Virus record (IMG/VR): IMGVR_UViG_2648501299_000008
From: a virus
Lineage: Duplodnaviria > Heunggongvirae > Uroviricota > Caudoviricetes
DNA: 43,241 bases
Reading direction: 5' to 3' (one strand)
A program made the position numbers and the translations under genes. Under the pieces are notes generated by a model. The model was not told the DNA's origin. It ran no database searches and saw only the letters and a list, made by a program, of their open reading frames with translations. Shown piece by piece: positions 1 through 31,860 of this stretch; the stretch's first letter is position 1; every line of letters begins with the position of its first letter.

Positions 1-549
1 TCAGCTAGCTGGAAACTTTTTATACAGAGTTGAGAGCCCTACTCCATACGTTTTTGATACGCTTTGTCGTGATTCACCGGTTGCCATCCGCTCCCCCATT
101 TCCCGCCATTGCTCATCCGTGAACTTAGGCCTGCGACCACCAACTCGCCCTTTTGCCCTGGCTACGGCCAGCCCTGCTAAGGTACGTTCGCTATTAAGAT
201 CAGATTCATATTGTGCTGCGGAAAGGATGTTACGAAAGTTATAGCGGCCGCTGGCTGTTTTGAGATCCACGCCATCGGTAATACTGCGGAAGTTGATACC
301 CTTTTCCTGTAACTGCTGGAACATCAACAGCGCATGCAGAACGTTGCGGCCTATCCTGTCCAGCTTCCAGACCACCAGTTCATCCCCCGGCTGCATAGTG
401 GCGATGAGCCGTTTTAGAACCGGCCAATTCGATTTCCTCCCGCTGGCATGCTCTTCAAAAATTTTCTCACAACCCGCTGACTTGAGCGCCGTTAGTTGCA
501 ATTCAGTGTCCTGGTGGTTTGTTGATACTCGGGCATAACCGTAAATCAT
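1..549 (-). CDS. DNA invertase, serine recombinase (Hin/Gin/Pin/Cin family)
   Basis: 182-aa ORF from ATG at 547-549 (MIYGYARVSTNHQ...). N-terminal resolvase-type catalytic region with Ser in YARVST, C-terminal HTH (GESRQSVSKTYGVGLSTLYKKF). The tool ORF runs to 663 but the extra N-terminus has no homology. Confidence 0.9.
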   Translation of the reverse strand: MIYGYARVSTNHQDTELQLTALKSAGCEKIFEEHASGRKSNWPVLKRLIATMQPGDELVVWKLDRIGRNVLHALLMFQQLQEKGINFRSITDGVDLKTASGRYNFRNILSAAQYESDLNSERTLAGLAVARAKGRVGGRRPKFTDEQWREMGERMATGESRQSVSKTYGVGLSTLYKKFPAS

Positions 550-1297: not shown

Positions 1298-2284
1298 GTG
1301 GGTTATTTTAGATTTGCTTTATGTATCGCAGTTGCAGCAAACCACCTATGGTTTATTGGAGCAATAGGTAGATATGCTGTTTTTTCATTTTATATATTGA
1401 GTGGTTTTTTAATGACCACTATTATTACGGGAAAATATGGAACAAGTGCTAAAGGCATTATAAGTTACATAGCAAATAGAGTTCTCAGAATATACCCGAT
1501 GTACATCGCTGTTTTTTTATTGTATGTTTTATTAGCGCTTCTGTGGGGCAACACTCCGGCATTAGATTTTAATATCCCTGCCACACTGAAAGGCTGGGTG
1601 ATAAATGCATCGATGATTGGCATGGACTTTAACTACAAAGACAGGCTGATATCTCCGGCATGGTCTTTATACGTTGAGCTGTTTTATTATTGCTTGATCC
1701 CATTTATAATAATAATGGGAAGAAGGGCGGTGTTATTATGGCTAGTGATGTCAGCTTCCTATCATGCATACAGTGTGTATTCACTTGGTATGTATAGTAG
1801 TTGGGATGTTAGATACGGGACAATACTTGCGGGTTCCATTGGGTTTTCTATTGGTTGCGCTTTAAAGTTGTATAACTTTAAAATAATTGAAAATAAATAC
1901 ATTTTCAAATTGTCTTTTGTAACACTAACTTTGGTGTATGGTTTAACAGCAGCATCATTCCTTTCTAAAGAAAGGTTGTTTTCTTTAGATTCTATGTCAA
2001 CATATTTCTTTTATGTAAACATGCTGGCATCAGCAGTTGTTATCAAAAATATATTTAATATAAAACAAAATAATACCTGTTTACTTTTAGGTGATCTCTC
2101 ATACCCATTCTATTTAACTCATACTTTATCTGGTGTTATCCTTATGAGGATTGGAATTATAGAAACCCGGAGTATTTATCTGTTTGTTTTTGGCGTCCTG
2201 CTTACATGTGGGATATGCATGCTCCTTAGAAGGTTTGAAATTGCGATTGATTCAATAAGAGATCGAGTGCGTTCCTACGCCTAA
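1298..2284 (+). CDS. acyltransferase family 3 integral membrane protein (Oac/OafA-like O-antigen acetyltransferase)
   Basis: 328-aa polytopic membrane protein with GTG start and AGAGGT Shine-Dalgarno 6 nt upstream. Carries the FYILSGFLMT motif typical of acyltransferase_3. Region looks AT-rich by eye and is on the strand opposite the tail genes. Confidence 0.7.
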   Translation: MGYFRFALCIAVAANHLWFIGAIGRYAVFSFYILSGFLMTTIITGKYGTSAKGIISYIANRVLRIYPMYIAVFLLYVLLALLWGNTPALDFNIPATLKGWVINASMIGMDFNYKDRLISPAWSLYVELFYYCLIPFIIIMGRRAVLLWLVMSASYHAYSVYSLGMYSSWDVRYGTILAGSIGFSIGCALKLYNFKIIENKYIFKLSFVTLTLVYGLTAASFLSKERLFSLDSMSTYFFYVNMLASAVVIKNIFNIKQNNTCLLLGDLSYPFYLTHTLSGVILMRIGIIETRSIYLFVFGVLLTCGICMLLRRFEIAIDSIRDRVRSYA

Positions 2285-2345: not shown

Positions 2346-2537
2346 TTACTTAACGTTATCATCCATAGGTGTCTCTGGCGGGATAAAATCACCATTGTTA
2401 TACGCCCAGCCAATACCCGCCAAACCATTAGCTAATATAGCCACACCAGAATCAGGCTTCCAATCCGATTCACCATCCCAAATAACCATATTAATGACGA
2501 CTCCAGCATCAACGACTGCGTAAACACTACCCATCAT
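2346..2537 (-). CDS. small phage protein downstream of the tail fibre (possible tail fibre assembly/chaperone-like)
   Basis: 63-aa ORF whose start overlaps the tail fibre stop by 4 nt. The VVINMVIWDG...IGWAYNNGDF pattern is typical of small ORFs that follow tail fibre genes. Family not confirmed. Confidence 0.45.
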   Translation of the reverse strand: MMGSVYAVVDAGVVINMVIWDGESDWKPDSGVAILANGLAGIGWAYNNGDFIPPETPMDDNVK

Positions 2538-3514
2538 GCATACTCCATAATAATAATGACACCGGGCGCGCCGTTACCACCAGCTTTCCCAGCACCACTA
2601 GAGCCAGAAAACGCGCCGCTACCGCCAGACCCGTAACCTGCACCATTGTTGCCTACCACGGACAGACTCCCTCCTGAACCGACATGGTTACCGCCAGAAC
2701 CCAGAGGATTACCACCTCCTCTACCTGAAAGCCCAGTCCCGATAGCTAAACCCTGGCCGCCCGCTTCACCATCAATGGAAACTATATTTGCGCCAGTGCA
2801 CGGCGCTGTTTTTGTCTGAATTGACTGGCATACGCTTGGAACTGTAAATGAGTTAGACGCCAGACCACTGCTGCCGCCAGGGCAGGTCATTATTGTGCCA
2901 AAAATAGTGTCTCCACCTGCACCACCGATATTGGCACCAGTACTGGATGCTGAACCTGTCCCACCATTCCCACCAGCACCAATAGTTACTGATATCGGCC
3001 CTGTAATCGTGAACTTAGTCTCACCATACGATCCAGAGTTTCCACCCGCAGCTGACGACACCTGCCCAGATGGTGGTGTCGAACTCCCACCACCACCTGC
3101 ACCACCACCGACTCCACGTCCAATGCCAAATTTTGCCCCAGGTGTTGGGGTATACATTCCCGATGAGGTGATAACTTTCACGCCCACTAAACGTCCAACC
3201 GTTGACGACCCAAGCCCTCCTACTAATTGAAGGTTTGTGAGAGCCGTAGAAATCGCCGCTGCACCATCTGATTTGATATCGGCAAATGGGTTTGCACGGC
3301 TCAGTGTGAGTTTTTGAATGGCTTTTAAAACCTGAGTCATATCGTTAATGTCGAGCGCCAATCCTGCTGACTCTACGATATGCGCTAACTCTTCCTGCAT
3401 GGCATTAAACGCTGCTGCCCGCAGCCTCGTTGCGGCAATACCACCAGCAACACTTCCATCAGTATATTTGCCATCCTGCGTTGCAGTGGCTTCGACTTGC
3501 CCGATTCGGAGCAT
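2534..3514 (-). CDS. tail fibre protein, glycine-rich
   Basis: 326 aa; conserved-looking N-terminal attachment region followed by long Gly/Ser/Thr-rich repeats. GAGGA Shine-Dalgarno before the ATG at 3514. Sits distal to the baseplate genes. Confidence 0.7.
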   Translation of the reverse strand: MLRIGQVEATATQDGKYTDGSVAGGIAATRLRAAAFNAMQEELAHIVESAGLALDINDMTQVLKAIQKLTLSRANPFADIKSDGAAAISTALTNLQLVGGLGSSTVGRLVGVKVITSSGMYTPTPGAKFGIGRGVGGGAGGGGSSTPPSGQVSSAAGGNSGSYGETKFTITGPISVTIGAGGNGGTGSASSTGANIGGAGGDTIFGTIMTCPGGSSGLASNSFTVPSVCQSIQTKTAPCTGANIVSIDGEAGGQGLAIGTGLSGRGGGNPLGSGGNHVGSGGSLSVVGNNGAGYGSGGSGAFSGSSGAGKAGGNGAPGVIIIMEYA

Positions 3515-3565
3515 AGTTAATCCTCACTTAGTGTTAAGCGATAAAATCAGAGGGGGAAATATCAG

Positions 3566-4159
3566 TTATGAATAATTGAAAATGATGTTCAGATGGGATG
3601 GGGCAATTTTGTTGATTGAACACTCCAGTTGTTTATTGCCCCACGATGCGAGCGGATCTCCGCAGTAGGACGCGCCAGCAAGCGAATACTTGATCGTTGT
3701 TTGTGGCGCATTTATCCGCCAGGTAAATGGCCACTCGTCACCGTTAAGCGCATCACCGCATACTGACATGCCACTCATAGCGGGCCGGAACTGTGTGATA
3801 GTGATGGTATAACCAAGAGCTGCAGCCACCCGGATGTAATAATCGCGGTTCAGGCCGCCGGTGCTGATTAACTTTGCCACCACGGCGCGCTGGCGATCGC
3901 TGACGCCACCGGATTCACCAATCCCACAATCATCTGGTAACCCCAGAGAGCTTTCCCATTCTGACAACATTACCGTCGCTGTAGGGGGAAAAGCACCAGT
4001 AATCAGGCTTTGCGCATCGTTGTCAGAACGCTGAAACGCGCTGCCCAGTGCCCGTAATACCGCAGCCTGTACCGTTCTTTGCGACCGGGGCCACGCCCTG
4101 CCCGTCGGTAGCAGCGCACCAAGCGCACCGGCATAATCATTTTTTGAAAAGAGGCTCAT
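3566..4159 (-). CDS. tail protein, YmfQ/DUF2313-like (Mu gp48-like)
   Basis: 197 aa; gene order baseplate J -> this gene -> tail fibre, as in e14 and Mu-like tails. Start overlaps the upstream stop. Confidence 0.7.
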   Translation of the reverse strand: MSLFSKNDYAGALGALLPTGRAWPRSQRTVQAAVLRALGSAFQRSDNDAQSLITGAFPPTATVMLSEWESSLGLPDDCGIGESGGVSDRQRAVVAKLISTGGLNRDYYIRVAAALGYTITITQFRPAMSGMSVCGDALNGDEWPFTWRINAPQTTIKYSLAGASYCGDPLASWGNKQLECSINKIAPSHLNIIFNYS

Positions 4160-5298
4160 ACAAAATTCACCCCGCCAAGCACCGGAATTTCGCCAACAGC
4201 AAAGGTGATATTGGCCGTCGGAGAGTTAAGAATATAGCCCGTCGTGCCGCTAACACCGCCGATACTCCCGTTAATATCAGAGAGGTAAACTTTCCCGGAA
4301 CCATCAGGGTTAGCTTCATCAAAAAACAGCGCCGTCAGCGCGTCTTTTATCCCCTGAACTGTGGTGCTGTCGGCATTTTTGATCCCAGAGATTTCAATAT
4401 TGATGACTTTCTTGATCGGGGAACATACGAAAACAATGGCAGTGTCTGTCTGCTGCGGATAGATGTGGTCGGCGACAGCGAGCTGGTCTCCGGTGGCTTT
4501 AACAGCCCCCCAGTCCTCAAGTTGGGATATTCCGTCGGTACCGACCGGAAACCCACCATTGTCATTCCGATCACACATGATATACACGCCAACGGTCCCG
4601 GCCCCGTTCAGACGCCGCTTTACCCACGCGCGGGTGACGCCCGAAACCTCAAGCGCCCATTTTTTATAATCGGCGTCGCTTCCACCCTGAGGCGGATTCT
4701 GCCATGCCAGCAAGCCACGACTGCGAAAATCCTCTTCCGTTTCAATATCGGCTCCGCCGGTCGCAGCGGACAGTAACGTTACCTGTGGATCCACGCCAGC
4801 AATATTCGCGTCCAGGGTCATTATGGTCCCGGCATCAGCGTTACCGCGCGCGCCTCCACCCGTTACATCACTGGTAATATCCGGCAGTATGGCCGTCACC
4901 GCGACGATACCAAATCCATCTGCCTGAATTTTAAGATCTGCATCCGTCCGGTACTGGTATCCGTCCCCGCGGTTAATGATCGAGCCAACAGGGATAATAC
5001 AGTCAACACTGCCACTAGCCTGTACCGCAGGCGACTTCGCCGCTGCAGCTGGTTTTCTGAATACCTGCTTAAGGGCCATCCACCCGGCGAGATACTCATC
5101 GGTAGAGGTAAACGGGTTTGTCTGCAGGGCAATATAGTCAAGGTAGGCGTAATGCAGATGCCCCATCCCCGCATCCATGTCAGCCAGTACCTTCAGGTTC
5201 GCGAAGCGCAGGAGCGCACCAACATCCTCAAGCTCCGCCTGCATAAATTTCCGGTTTCCGTCGCGGAGTTCGCTCAGCGTCGGTCGTTTAAACGGCAT
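4156..5298 (-). CDS. baseplate J-like protein (Mu gp47-like)
   Basis: 380 aa from the internal ATG at 5296-5298 (MPFKRPTLSELR...), which abuts the upstream stop at 5300-5302. The longer tool ORF overlaps the upstream gene. Confidence 0.75.
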   Translation of the reverse strand: MPFKRPTLSELRDGNRKFMQAELEDVGALLRFANLKVLADMDAGMGHLHYAYLDYIALQTNPFTSTDEYLAGWMALKQVFRKPAAAAKSPAVQASGSVDCIIPVGSIINRGDGYQYRTDADLKIQADGFGIVAVTAILPDITSDVTGGGARGNADAGTIMTLDANIAGVDPQVTLLSAATGGADIETEEDFRSRGLLAWQNPPQGGSDADYKKWALEVSGVTRAWVKRRLNGAGTVGVYIMCDRNDNGGFPVGTDGISQLEDWGAVKATGDQLAVADHIYPQQTDTAIVFVCSPIKKVINIEISGIKNADSTTVQGIKDALTALFFDEANPDGSGKVYLSDINGSIGGVSGTTGYILNSPTANITFAVGEIPVLGGVNFV

Positions 5299-27909: not shown

Positions 27910-27936
27910 ACAAAAAACCCGCTCGATGGCGGGTTC
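27910..27936 (-). terminator. strong rho-independent terminator just downstream of the Q-like gene
   Basis: Minus-strand AACCCGC-catcga-GCGGGTT followed by UUUUUUG. Confidence 0.6.
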
Positions 27937-28000
27937 TTAATTCTTTGTCGACCTACGAAGCTATGGCGACGATATCAGATTTACATGAAATATATGCGTT

Positions 28001-28690
28001 TCAATCCAGTTTTGCAAGACTTGAGTCTAAATTTGTCGCCTTTTGTTGTGAACGTGATCGCGTAACCTGCAATAAAGCCCCGCTATCCAGTCGCAGGAAG
28101 ATGCTGCGCATCTCAACCCAGCGGTCAGTAAAGGTCTCTGACCAGTTTTTTGGCGTTACGCCAACCAGCGACGCCAGCGCCTGATATTCGTACATCTCAC
28201 GCCCTGCCAGCTCTGCTTTCACGTCCTGAGCCGCGAGCCAGACAAGCTTCTTCAGGCGCTCCATCGTTTTGCCGGCCACCTTCTTCGCGCCGAGCTGCTC
28301 CCGGAACTCTGCCCACGCCCATTGAGTGATTTCCACCTGATAGCACCAGCGCACGTTCTCGCTATAGTTCCATAGCAGCCACGCTTTCTGGTGTTCTTCG
28401 AGTGACATCAGTGCGCGGCGCCACGATGCGCTGGAGTATTCAACCGGCTGCACCAGGGGAATATGCGAACCCTTGGCATGCGACTGCTTGCCCGGTATTG
28501 GCGGGTTATCCAGCGTAATCATTTCCCCGGTCACTTCATCCAGCACTCGAGGCTTTTTACGTTTAAACGTTCCCGTATCGAACTGCGCGTTTTCAAGCCA
28601 CGCCATCAACTGCCCTTTCGTCGCACCACTTAAATCGGCGGTGGCCACCATCAACTGCTGGCGCACGTATTCGAGAAATTGAGTATTCAT
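28001..28690 (-). CDS. late-gene antiterminator Q-like protein
   Basis: 229 aa immediately downstream of ylcG and rusA and upstream of the terminators, promoter and lysis genes. Assignment by synteny and size more than sequence. Confidence 0.5.
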   Translation of the reverse strand: MNTQFLEYVRQQLMVATADLSGATKGQLMAWLENAQFDTGTFKRKKPRVLDEVTGEMITLDNPPIPGKQSHAKGSHIPLVQPVEYSSASWRRALMSLEEHQKAWLLWNYSENVRWCYQVEITQWAWAEFREQLGAKKVAGKTMERLKKLVWLAAQDVKAELAGREMYEYQALASLVGVTPKNWSETFTDRWVEMRSIFLRLDSGALLQVTRSRSQQKATNLDSSLAKLD

Positions 28691-30281: not shown

Positions 30282-30381
30282 GGTTCCCCCGTGGCGCATC
30301 AAGTTGTCAGTTGTTCAGGCTGACACTGACATTATGTACAGCTGATAATGGAAAATCAAATGTTGCTTTTAGCTGAACTGA

Positions 30382-31227: not shown

Positions 31228-31569
31228 TTATTTGCAGGTAAATTGCACTACATCACCCTGAGACATTTGAAAGAATCGGTAATCACCATCTCCACGTCTT
31301 TGTATAATATTGCCCTCTTTAGTCGCACCAGATGGGTATGTCTTTCCTTCCGGTTTTTCTGGCCTAATCTTGCTTGTGGTGTAAGAAATGGTCCCAAAGT
31401 TAACTGTTATTGAATTTCCGATGTCAGTTATATTTGCCTTTACTTCGCCGGATTTTACTTCATTTGAGGTCATACTCCTTGCTATTCCAGAGCATACATA
31501 TTCCTTTGCTTCAACGGCATGGGGCATAAGAAAGCCAATTCCTAACAACGTGATCGCCAAATATTTCAC
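31228..31569 (-). CDS. secreted small protein, MliC/PliC-like lysozyme-inhibitor candidate
   Basis: 113 aa from GTG at 31567-31569 with AAGGAG Shine-Dalgarno. Predicted signal peptide MKYLAITLLGIGFLMPHAVEA|KEYVC. Mature protein has EY.C near the N-terminus, a central YPSGATKEG segment and a C-terminal Cys, reminiscent of the MliC/PliC family (from memory). Confidence 0.45.
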   Translation of the reverse strand: MKYLAITLLGIGFLMPHAVEAKEYVCSGIARSMTSNEVKSGEVKANITDIGNSITVNFGTISYTTSKIRPEKPEGKTYPSGATKEGNIIQRRGDGDYRFFQMSQGDVVQFTCK

Positions 31570-31620: not shown

Positions 31621-31731
31621 AAAGAAAAGTGTGGTCATGGCTATTTTTGGTAATGTTATTCGATGATAATTCACTTTATTTTTTAAATCATAATGCTATA
31701 TTTCTTTCACCCCTTGCTTGCAAGGTACAAC

Positions 31732-31823
31732 GGAGGGTTGGCCGAGTGGTTGATGGCACCTCACTGATAATGAGGCGTACGGGCTATAAACCCGTACCGC
31801 GGGTTCGAACCCCGCACCCTATT
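31732..31823 (+). tRNA. tRNA-like element, class-II (long variable arm) architecture, anticodon GAU; probably degenerate
   Basis: Hand fold: acceptor GGAGGGT/ACCCTAT (5 Watson-Crick pairs, one G-U, one G-A mismatch); 3-bp D stem GCC/GGC with GAGTGGTTGAT loop; anticodon stem CCTCA/TGAGG with loop CTGATAA; 23-nt variable arm with 7-bp stem; T arm GCGGG-TTCGAAC-CCCGC; no encoded CCA. Confidence 0.45.
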
Positions 31824-31824
31824 T

Positions 31825-31860
31825 AAGGGGTCGACAAATGTCGGCCCCTTCTTCGTTTTA
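31825..31860 (+). terminator. hairpin/terminator immediately 3' of the tRNA-like element
   Basis: 10-bp stem AAGGGGTCGA...TCGGCCCCTT followed by CTTCGTTTTA. Confidence 0.4.

Follow-up and report, generated by a model that had tools for sequence, protein, structure and literature searches.

A lambdoid prophage cassette encoding a probable tRNA mimic with a serine-type body, an isoleucine anticodon and an invariant acceptor lesion

The window analysed here, a stretch of 43,241 nt from a Caudoviricetes genome (IMG/VR record IMGVR_UViG_2648501299_000008), is an E. coli-type lambdoid prophage, and the element under study is a class-II tRNA-shaped RNA encoded at 31732..31823 on its plus strand. The feature probably represents a tRNA mimic kept by selection, as opposed to a tRNA in decay or an ordinary decoder. 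Our preferred explanation, to which we assign a probability of about 45%, is an autonomous prophage moron encoding a tRNA mimic that would be charged poorly or not at all and would act through its anticodon loop.

ARAGORN called a single tRNA in the 43-kb window, at 31732..31823 (+), as tRNA-Ile with anticodon gat. Rfam RF00005 matched the same span at 46.4 bits (gathering score 29, E 6.8e-07), and its alignment flagged non-standard pairs at the top of the acceptor stem. Direct reading of this stem gave a G1:U72 wobble, a G2.A71 mismatch and five Watson-Crick pairs. When folded alone the RNA formed a cloverleaf with a 5-bp acceptor helix at -35.4 kcal/mol (z -1.8), and at permissive thresholds no RNA family other than tRNA was matched. 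By its RF00005 score, the ARAGORN call, the minimum free energy (MFE) fold and the covariation described below, the RNA is thus a generic cloverleaf tRNA. The CCA is genome-encoded in E. coli tRNA genes. The window RNA lacks both the seven paired acceptor positions and the 3' CCA of a functional E. coli elongator, although CCA could come post-transcriptionally. Its parts are as follows.

31732..31823 (+), class-II (serine-type) tRNA-shaped RNA, 92 nt, from ARAGORN, Rfam, the cloverleaf MFE and family covariation
31732-31738 (+), acceptor 5' strand, GGAGGGT
31741-31757 (+), D arm
31759-31775 (+), anticodon arm, with loop CTGATAA at 31764..31770 and anticodon GAU at 31766-31768
31777-31797 (+), variable arm of 21 nt, with a 7-bp stem and a 7-nt loop
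31799-31815 (+), T arm with a 5-bp T stem
31816-31822 (+), acceptor 3' strand, ACCCTAT, in which A71 is 31821 and U72 is 31822
31823 (+), discriminator U73, with no CCA encoded

The RNA lies within a predicted autonomous cassette of about 160 nt, composed of an extended -10 promoter, a 23-nt leader with a hairpin, the tRNA-like RNA and a terminator.

31694..31702 (+), predicted extended -10 promoter element TGcTATATT (TG at 31694-5, hexamer TATATT at 31697-31702), with a weak -35 and a predicted start near A31709
31709..31731 (+), 5' leader with hairpin CCUUG-CUUG-CAAGG (31712..31725) followed by UACAAC, from family alignment, RNAalifold and single-sequence folding
31825..31859 (+), intrinsic terminator from a terminator scan, with an 11-bp hairpin (31825..31850), loop AAAT and the U-rich tail CUUCGUUUU

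The original prediction, made from the letters of the DNA, had placed a class-II tRNA-like element at this locus, with the loop CTGATAA giving GAU, an acceptor 3' strand ACCCTAT leaving a G-A mismatch, no CCA and a plus-strand hairpin after it. ARAGORN and RF00005 bore out the element at the expected coordinates and did not reject the fold, ARAGORN and direct reading agreed on the anticodon, direct reading and the non-standard Rfam pairs upheld the mismatch and the missing CCA, and the hairpin scored as an intrinsic terminator. The G1:U72 wobble had been missed, as had the upstream promoter, the leader, the conserved family and its relatives with UAG and GAA anticodons.

Family members were recovered by scans that took the leader and the unusual 3' end as anchors, and an alignment of seven variants was assembled from the window, L004, L012, L147, L148 (L149 carries the same UAG variant), L159 and L160. 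Every member was called a tRNA by ARAGORN, with anticodon GAU in the window, L004, L012, L160 and L147, UAG in L148/L149 and GAA in L159. Under a model made up of the cloverleaf, the leader hairpin and the terminator, 90.6% of cells over the seven variants were paired, as against 37-51% with slid partners, and nine pairs had changed on both sides, as against two to three in the slid controls; none of 500 shuffles reached the observed values. Compensatory changes were located in the variable arm, the T stem and the terminator, and between close variants the substitutions all fell at unpaired positions.

The acceptor end was held constant throughout the family. RNAalifold retained only five acceptor pairs; pair 1:72 is G:U in 7/7 and pair 2:71 is non-standard in 7/7. 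The 3' end ACCCTATT (after 5' GGAGGGT) is the same in all seven variants, with A71, U72 and U73 in each. The tRNA bodies of L159 and L160 are identical to that of the window at 69/92-94 positions with the acceptor end unchanged, and at this 25% body divergence the promoter, the leader, the terminator and the exact 3' end are retained. The anticodon, in contrast, is variable with its rules kept. L012 and L148 show five differences only, at positions 34, 36 and 37 and at one compensatory variable-stem pair, a clustering with P = 7.7e-4. Position 37 tracks the anticodon, being G37 with UAG and A37 with GAU and GAA, and pyrimidine 32 and U33 are retained, giving a canonical anticodon loop (Y32, U33, purine 37). 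The deviant member is L147, which has C37, an A.G mismatch in the T stem and a different leader. Because the acceptor end is invariant, the leader hairpin is invariant in 6/7 and the anticodon varies within these rules, the family is, as judged by sequence comparison, one under selection for RNA shape and anticodon loop, which is not the signature of a decaying pseudogene.

The boundaries of the cassette emerged from the same comparisons. Between the window, the viral contig L004 and the metagenome contig L012 the flanks cannot be aligned, so that these represent three contexts, and the conserved block common to them runs from the start of the -10 hexamer to the end of the terminator T-run (~31857), with the extended -10 element as its first conserved position. 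The motif TGnTA(T/G)ATT is found in 5/7 variants, and L004 has a TTGATT -35 instead. A consensus promoter scan, which needs 4/6 matches in the -35, did not report the element at 31694..31702; we infer that it acts as an extended -10 sigma-70 promoter. In the leader (alignment columns 19-41) L012, L159 and L160 are the same as the window, even where the tRNA body has diverged to 69/92-94, and L004 and L148 have one to two differences, all 3' of the hairpin. The run after the terminator hairpin reads CTTCGTTTT, and the hairpin is maintained by compensation in L159 and L160, while the changes in L004, L012 and L148 are confined to its loop. Two candidate features were discarded. A leader-trailer pairing, AACGGAG/CUUCGUU, in the MFE structure of the full transcript was by eye lost in L148, L159 and L160 and was treated as a folding artefact, and two coding families matching the 18-nt leader were unrelated and judged to be chance. 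The cassette is missing from most related phages. With its own terminator and putative promoter, presence/absence polymorphism and unrelated flanks, its layout as read is that of a phage moron.

The body of the RNA was compared with host and phage tRNA genes. Identity was highest to the serine genes of E. coli K-12 (serV 72%, serW 70%, serT 69%, serU 66%), followed by ileV (65%, over 51% of the query), tyrV (65%) and leuW (55%). The D arm is nearly the same as in serV and serT, and the motif GGCCGAGnGGnTGAnGGC is common with the serine genes, in agreement with the serine-type resemblance proposed originally. Differences from the K-12 tRNA genes are distributed over all stems, and a sensitive BLAST of a 171-nt stretch against 5426 complete E. 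coli genomes returned no host tRNA among its matches. By these comparisons, the body is serine-type and is no copy or fragment of a host gene; an alignment to host serine and leucine tRNA genes, proposed earlier as a way to locate a break in identity, gave no such break and no host 5' fragment, and a host tRNA fragment was rejected with at most 72% identity to any host tRNA. Phage tRNA-Ser genes with the perfect acceptor GGAGGGT/ACCCTCC numbered 66 distinct sequences, among which no sibling with a normal 3' end was closer than 67/92 identical positions. Many of these relatives carry U73 with CCA. U at position 33 is universal in tRNAs; the phage serine-type tRNAs of L239 and L199/L202/L211/L216, with the same acceptor, have loops CCAGAAA or CCAGATA, with C33 and not U33.

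Identity elements for the E. coli synthetases were then read off the window RNA. The bacterial serine set comprises G73, C72, G2-C71, R4-Y69, C11-G24 and a large variable region, G1-C72 and G2-C71 being conserved in most bacterial tRNA-Ser, and seryl-tRNA synthetase (SerRS) does not read the anticodon and mainly recognises the variable arm and tertiary shape (PMC9976931). The window RNA has the body determinants (a 7-bp variable stem, C11-G24 and G4-C69) and lacks the acceptor determinants G2-C71, C72 and G73, which are replaced by A71, U72 and U73 in 7/7. Its anticodon is not a serine anticodon (NGA or GCU), nor are UAG and GAA in the relatives. For isoleucine, the loop determinants G34, A35, U36, A37 and A38 are present, the loop CUGAUAA being the same as that of K-12 ileV, whereas A73, C4-G69, U12-A23, C29-G41 and the short class-I variable loop of tRNA-Ile(GAU) are absent; the window RNA has U73, G4-C69, C12-G23, U29-A41 and a 21-nt variable arm in their place. 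U73 also departs from the A73 required for leucine and tyrosine (the latter with G34 and U35 in addition). Since the serine determinants at 71, 72 and 73 are gone, and the isoleucine elements outside the anticodon and the A73 needed by the leucyl and tyrosyl enzymes are missing, we infer that the RNA is a poor substrate, or none, for every E. coli synthetase considered. Efficient decoding of isoleucine codons as serine would be unlikely, because the SerRS acceptor determinants G2-C71, C72 and G73 are missing from the invariant end. The earlier proposal of an expressed phage tRNA with unusual decoding is thus upheld in part: expression is predicted from the sequence evidence, and the conserved acceptor lesion makes efficient decoding unlikely.

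On one side of the element, PHROG assignments place a replication initiator, a DnaC-like loader and a Ren-like protein, and on the other a HolE-like protein, NinB, an HNH/DUF1364 protein, RusA and Q. Every one of these genes is encoded on the minus strand, so that the plus-strand tRNA-like gene runs against the early operon, in the nin/early region, and the cassette was on the strand opposite to neighbouring phage genes in 4/5 contexts. The identical 171-nt stretch was present in 11/5426 complete E. coli genomes, in all of which PGAP annotates the RNA as tRNA-Ile; the replication module of these prophages differs from that of the window. In total, the family was tallied in these 11 E. coli genomes, 6 viral contigs and 4 metagenome contigs, and a plasmid search gave no match. 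No protein neighbour was common to the family members at the loci examined. The small open reading frame (ORF) 31228..31569 (-) was considered as a partner protein and rejected, as it is not conserved with the cassette across contexts and has no PHROG, Pfam or PADLOC match. This ORF, divergent from the cassette, encodes 113 aa from MKYLAITLL... with a signal-peptide-like N-terminus; it is kept beside the cassette in the E. coli prophages (WP_039022277.1) and is absent beside the other family members.

A wider search was made with a degenerate pattern in which only the class-II D arm and the CUGAUAA loop were fixed. Matches in 2 viral contigs, 3/185,579 species genomes and 15 metagenome contigs resolved into about ten lineages. 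Pair 2:71 was lost or weakened in 6/10 of these, as compared with 1/113 control tRNAs, and in those six the top of the stem was the sole defect site (Fisher p = 3e-7; 5e-5 with the controls collapsed conservatively). The 113 controls were class-II-type tRNAs that share this D arm but have free anticodons, all taken from viral contigs. The acceptor-defective lineages were:

Window family: G1:U72, G2.A71
L003/L011, 1814..1903: A1.C72, C2.C71
L008 3163..3250, with L009, L016 and L021: C1.C72, C2.C71
L017, 4854..4943: C2.C71
L010, 2430..2518: G2:U71, C3.C70
L018, 961..1045: pair 2:71 lost or weakened

The sources of the five lineages other than that of the window are a GC-rich phage contig and metagenomes of soil or peat; these lineages mostly end in GCCA, and their defects are confined to 1:72, 2:71 or 3:70 and are mostly on the 5' side. 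The L017 tRNA(GAU) comes after chromosomal yebC, and a ThiF/E1-like gene adjoins those of L008 and L009. A further locus, L013 ~232..262 (-), matches a class-II tRNA(GAU) in its 5' half alone, up to and including the anticodon stem, and continues in unrelated sequence; ARAGORN called no tRNA there, and a true truncation or junction is possible.

The remaining four lineages had perfect stems:

L005, 3372..3462 (-): intact class-II tRNA(GAU), G73, Planctomycetota metagenome-assembled genome (MAG)
L006 (the same as L020), 2697..2789 (-): intact class-II tRNA(GAU), G73, Planctomycetota MAG
L007, 3589..3683 (+): intact class-II tRNA(GAU), G73, Planctomycetota MAG
L022, 4275..4367 (+): intact class-II tRNA(GAU), G73, metagenome contig without an assigned taxon, Planctomycetota-type

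Within the ~200 nt downstream of each intact tRNA there is a promoter-like site, TTGAC..17..CGATAAT, and then a terminated RNA of ~70-90 nt, whose 5' end is perfectly antisense to the anticodon stem and variable arm of its own locus over 20 nt in L005, 20 in L006, 13 in L007 and 18 in L022, with co-variation between loci. In random 600-nt pieces the longest antisense match was 3.7 nt on average, with one piece at 12 nt. The acceptor-defective lineages had no antisense partner, their matches being at most 9 nt, and within the window no antisense copy or partner of the RNA was detected. No Rfam family matched the Planctomycetota-type antisense RNA. These loci have the look of a tRNA and cognate antisense-RNA module, possibly with a toxin-antitoxin-like control of a mistranslating tRNA, and the module is apparently undescribed. 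As the intact lineages all have an antisense partner and the defective ones never do, it seems from these alignments that a serine-type tRNA with an isoleucine anticodon is tolerated only if restrained by antisense RNA or disabled at 2:71. An int-alpA RNA motif (57.2 bits) at L006 4268..4336 (-), ~1.5 kb upstream of the tRNA(GAU)/antisense module, hints that this module lies in or beside a mobile element.

In the tRNA mimic explanation, the extended -10 promoter would drive synthesis of the RNA in the lysogen, antisense to the early operon; the orientation of the RNA against that operon is the reason for thinking that it is probably made in the lysogen. RNase P would remove the leader, the 3' end would form at or near the terminator, and the product would receive little or no amino acid. 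The acceptor lesion would thereby spare the cell the isoleucine-to-serine mistranslation expected of a serine-type body with a hydrophobic-codon anticodon. The RNA might then act via its anticodon loop, as a decoy or competitor for an anticodon reader such as an anticodon nuclease or a modification enzyme, or alternatively by entering the ribosomal A site as an uncharged cognate tRNA. Two such readers were considered and set aside. P2-OLD prefers a paired CNG motif, and the anticodon stem here is CUC/GAG; similarly, the RorSlfn5 targets named in the work on bacterial Schlafen tRNases (Lys, Met and phage Ala) are not class-II.

Several observations weigh against this explanation. Positions 71-73 are invariant, though mere non-chargeability would let them drift, which hints at a specific recognition of the end, and the leader is conserved more strongly than a mimic accounts for. 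The family is small (7 variants) and rare. The association with pair 2:71 was computed with controls from viral contigs only, both sets share the pattern-defined D arm, and the lineages are few. The RNA may also be unstable, as G1G2 and the unstable top of its acceptor would suit CCACCA tagging and U73 would disfavour CCA addition. G1G2 is reportedly required for such tagging (Wilusz 2011). CCA-adding enzymes put CCACCA on tRNAs with unstable acceptor stems and so direct them to RNase R decay, a pathway that operates in E. coli (PMC5824355), and pyrimidine discriminators are poor for CCA addition by the human enzyme (PMC4477674). Lastly, E. coli SerRS recognises mainly tertiary shape, and G73 matters in vivo and not for unmodified transcripts in vitro (PMC9976931); because of this reliance on shape, residual serylation of the window RNA is possible.

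That last point leads to an attenuated mistranslating tRNA, an unlikely alternative. Here the RNA would pass through RNase P, 3' trimming, host CCA addition and weak serylation to give a low, tolerated level of serine at AUY codons (CUR or UUY in the relatives), and the lesion would tune the dose. It would draw on a synthetase that ignores the anticodon and reads the variable arm and tertiary shape (PMC9976931), and it fits a canonical anticodon loop in which position 37 co-varies as in a decoder. The intact Planctomycetota relatives, each paired with an antisense partner as though their charged form were active and hazardous, point the same way. Missense suppressors of serine type are known, both natural and engineered (PMC5389517, PMC6125640, PMC6827378). 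All three acceptor determinants of the 3' strand and the CCA are gone, however, U73 is disfavoured for CCA addition, no gain for phage or lysogen is evident, and all three anticodons read hydrophobic codons, where serine would be most damaging. A genuine tRNA-Ile, charged by isoleucyl-tRNA synthetase (IleRS) through the anticodon loop and supplementing decoding or replacing a cleaved host tRNA, is very improbable. The loop CUGAUAA, with the IleRS determinants A37 and A38, is indeed that of host ileV, the PGAP label in 11 genomes is tRNA-Ile, and phage tRNAs rescue host tRNAs cleaved by defence systems (PMC11464382, PMC12445682). Against this, the RNA has none of A73, C4-G69, U12-A23 and C29-G41, its class-II body is foreign to IleRS, and close relatives carry leucine and phenylalanine anticodons on the same acceptor. 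In addition, AUY codons and tRNA-Ile(GAU) are abundant in E. coli.

The cassette could instead be an antisense or transcription-interference element, firing against the early rightward operon or acting as a trans antisense RNA on a tRNA-like scaffold whose shape serves processing and stability. This is improbable. The element is convergent with early genes in the window, L149, L012 and L004, has its own putative promoter and terminator and a strongly conserved leader, and the YUNR U-turn, a typical feature of antisense recognition loops, is present in anticodon loops. Yet the conserved block overlaps no conserved gene and its flanks vary by context, the orientation to neighbours differs in L159, the window has no antisense copy, and sites complementary to the anticodon loop occur at about the level of chance, none co-varying between the GAU and UAG phages. 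Within the phage sequences searched, no co-varying loop-complementary targets of the P4 CI/P1 C4 type were detected. Two 9-nt sites, CATTATCAG, complementing the anticodon loop and two stem bases, lie on the sense strand of the phage at window positions 30342 (-) and 22940 (-), one of them ~40 nt upstream of the ninB start; ~0.3 such sites would be expected by chance. As targets they were treated as chance, since the UAG phage L149 has no co-varying counterpart.

A non-functional relic, that is a phage tRNA-Ser with an anticodon mutation and inactivating 3' changes hitch-hiking in the mosaic nin region, is likewise a poor prospect. CUGCUAA to CUGAUAA is a single change from a serV-type tRNA-Ser(GCU), the perfect GGAGGGT/ACCCTCC acceptor is common among phage tRNA-Ser genes, the family is rare, as tallied above, and L147 has its signs of decay. 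The relic does not explain why every stem is maintained by compensatory changes, why close variants differ at unpaired positions, why promoter, leader, terminator and exact 3' end outlast the divergence of the body, or why the loop rules survive anticodon switching, and six independent lineages with pair 2:71 affected are not expected of random decay. Hardly tenable is an attachment-site remnant, in which an attB, attP or att-junction copy was left by a tRNA-targeting integrase. The 3' ends of tRNA genes are classic integration targets, and several other lineages have a mismatch starting exactly at 1-2 or 71-72, as if from a truncated copy. The position of the element, however, is mid-prophage, between replication and nin genes, and it has a conserved promoter and terminator and a variable anticodon. 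Inspection around the window element, L003, L008, L009, L010, L017, L004, L012, L147, L149 and L159 turned up no integrase, boundary or direct partial repeat, and the search for elements integrated at the site, or for a host tRNA gene sharing the 5' 70 nt, returned none. The original suggestion of a decayed tRNA or a former integration target with a replaced 3' end is therefore contradicted by the low host identity with differences in all stems, the lack of an adjacent integrase and the mid-prophage position, and equally by the invariant ACCCTATT, the compensatory stem changes and the cassette's own conserved promoter and terminator.

A more general proposal, which we regard as doubtful, is that deliberately non-acylatable, anticodon-programmable tRNA mimics are a new class of prophage effector RNA, and that, taken with the Planctomycetota pairs, serine-type tRNAs with hydrophobic-codon anticodons are a recurrent tool, hazardous as mistranslators when intact and checked by antisense RNA or by a built-in 2:71 lesion. 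A serine-type tRNA with an isoleucine, leucine or phenylalanine anticodon is a potential proteome-wide mistranslator because SerRS ignores the anticodon. The present family offers a natural case, tractable in E. coli, which is conserved and, as predicted, independently transcribed, with an invariant lesion at the SerRS acceptor determinants and an anticodon swapped under apparent selection. It raises the questions of whether natural tRNA mimics act uncharged, what reads the anticodon and whether 2:71 disruption is a general safety catch. The RefSeq label tRNA-Ile in 11 E. coli genomes is likely to be a functional mis-annotation, and the comparisons also brought to light the Planctomycetota tRNA and antisense-RNA module.

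Other features were noted in the window and in related loci. In L147, the most decayed-looking family member, a PD-Lambda-5 defence system adjoins the cassette at 2368..5051 (-), consisting of a methyltransferase matching PD-Lambda-5_B at 7e-124 and an AAA_15 ATPase. Two E. coli prophages with the identical cassette, L001 and L002, have an annotated tRNA-Thr at 1759..1833 (-), downstream of a Q-like antiterminator; the window, unlike these, contains no other tRNA. A recent report describes phage tRNA-Thr genes as countering tRNA cleavage by P2-OLD. In the window, a full-length match to isrJ (Rfam, 58.7 bits) at 27913..27985 (-) lies directly downstream of the Q gene (28001..28690, -) and ends in a terminator hairpin. 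Owing to its position directly after Q, it may be a short late-promoter leader transcript of the phage and not a free-standing small RNA.

Among the papers searched none contained the window RNA sequence; its closest relations are described by likeness. With bacterial tRNA-Ser (e.g. E. coli serV, GCU) and phage tRNA-Ser it shares the long variable arm, the 3-bp D stem with C11-G24, the D-arm motif GGCCGAGnGGnTGAnGGC, the canonical T loop and R4-Y69, and 5' GGAGGGT is common in phage tRNA-Ser. The window family differs from these in having GAU, UAG or GAA anticodons, A71, U72 and U73 in place of C, C and G, no CCA, a terminator abutting the 3' end and a conserved leader. Lambdoid prophage tRNA genes, to which Stx-phage ileZ-argN-argO belong, resemble it as small accessory RNA cargo annotated as tRNA (e.g. 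the L001 tRNA-Thr). Those tRNAs, in contrast, are class I and co-oriented with the late operon downstream of Q, whereas the window RNA is class II, antisense to the early operon and without CCA, and its acceptor end fails every E. coli identity set examined. P4 CI RNA and P1/P7 C4 RNA are RNase P-matured tRNA-like phage regulators, and the MHV68 vtRNAs are viral non-acylated tRNA-like RNAs. All of these are, like the window RNA, virus-encoded, tRNA-shaped and apparently not carriers of amino acids, working via loops or as processing modules; unlike P4 CI and P1/P7 C4, the window RNA has the full cloverleaf and a canonical anticodon loop, and no complementary target was found in the phage sequences searched.

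The closest described concept is that of the allo-tRNAs, serine-type long-arm tRNAs with non-serine anticodons, whose commonest group has the isoleucine anticodon UAU (Mukai et al. 2017, PMC5389517). Members of this UAU group are stem-destabilised, inactive in translation and located near mobile or toxin-antitoxin loci, and so provide a precedent for reading the window RNA as a mimic; allo-tRNAs in general have 8/4 or 9/3 acceptor/T architectures and occur mainly in Acidobacteria and other soil bacteria (PMC5389517). The window RNA shares with them the serine-type long variable arm combined with a non-serine anticodon. It differs in being a 7/5 cloverleaf (a T stem of 5 bp and an acceptor register of 7), and its family, found in enterobacterial lambdoid prophages, has a single acceptor lesion that never varies and a predicted promoter and terminator of its own. 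We class it as a phage-encoded tRNA-like RNA or a natural anticodon-reassigned serine-type tRNA, and do not file it under tRNA-Ser, tRNA-Ile or the allo-tRNAs.

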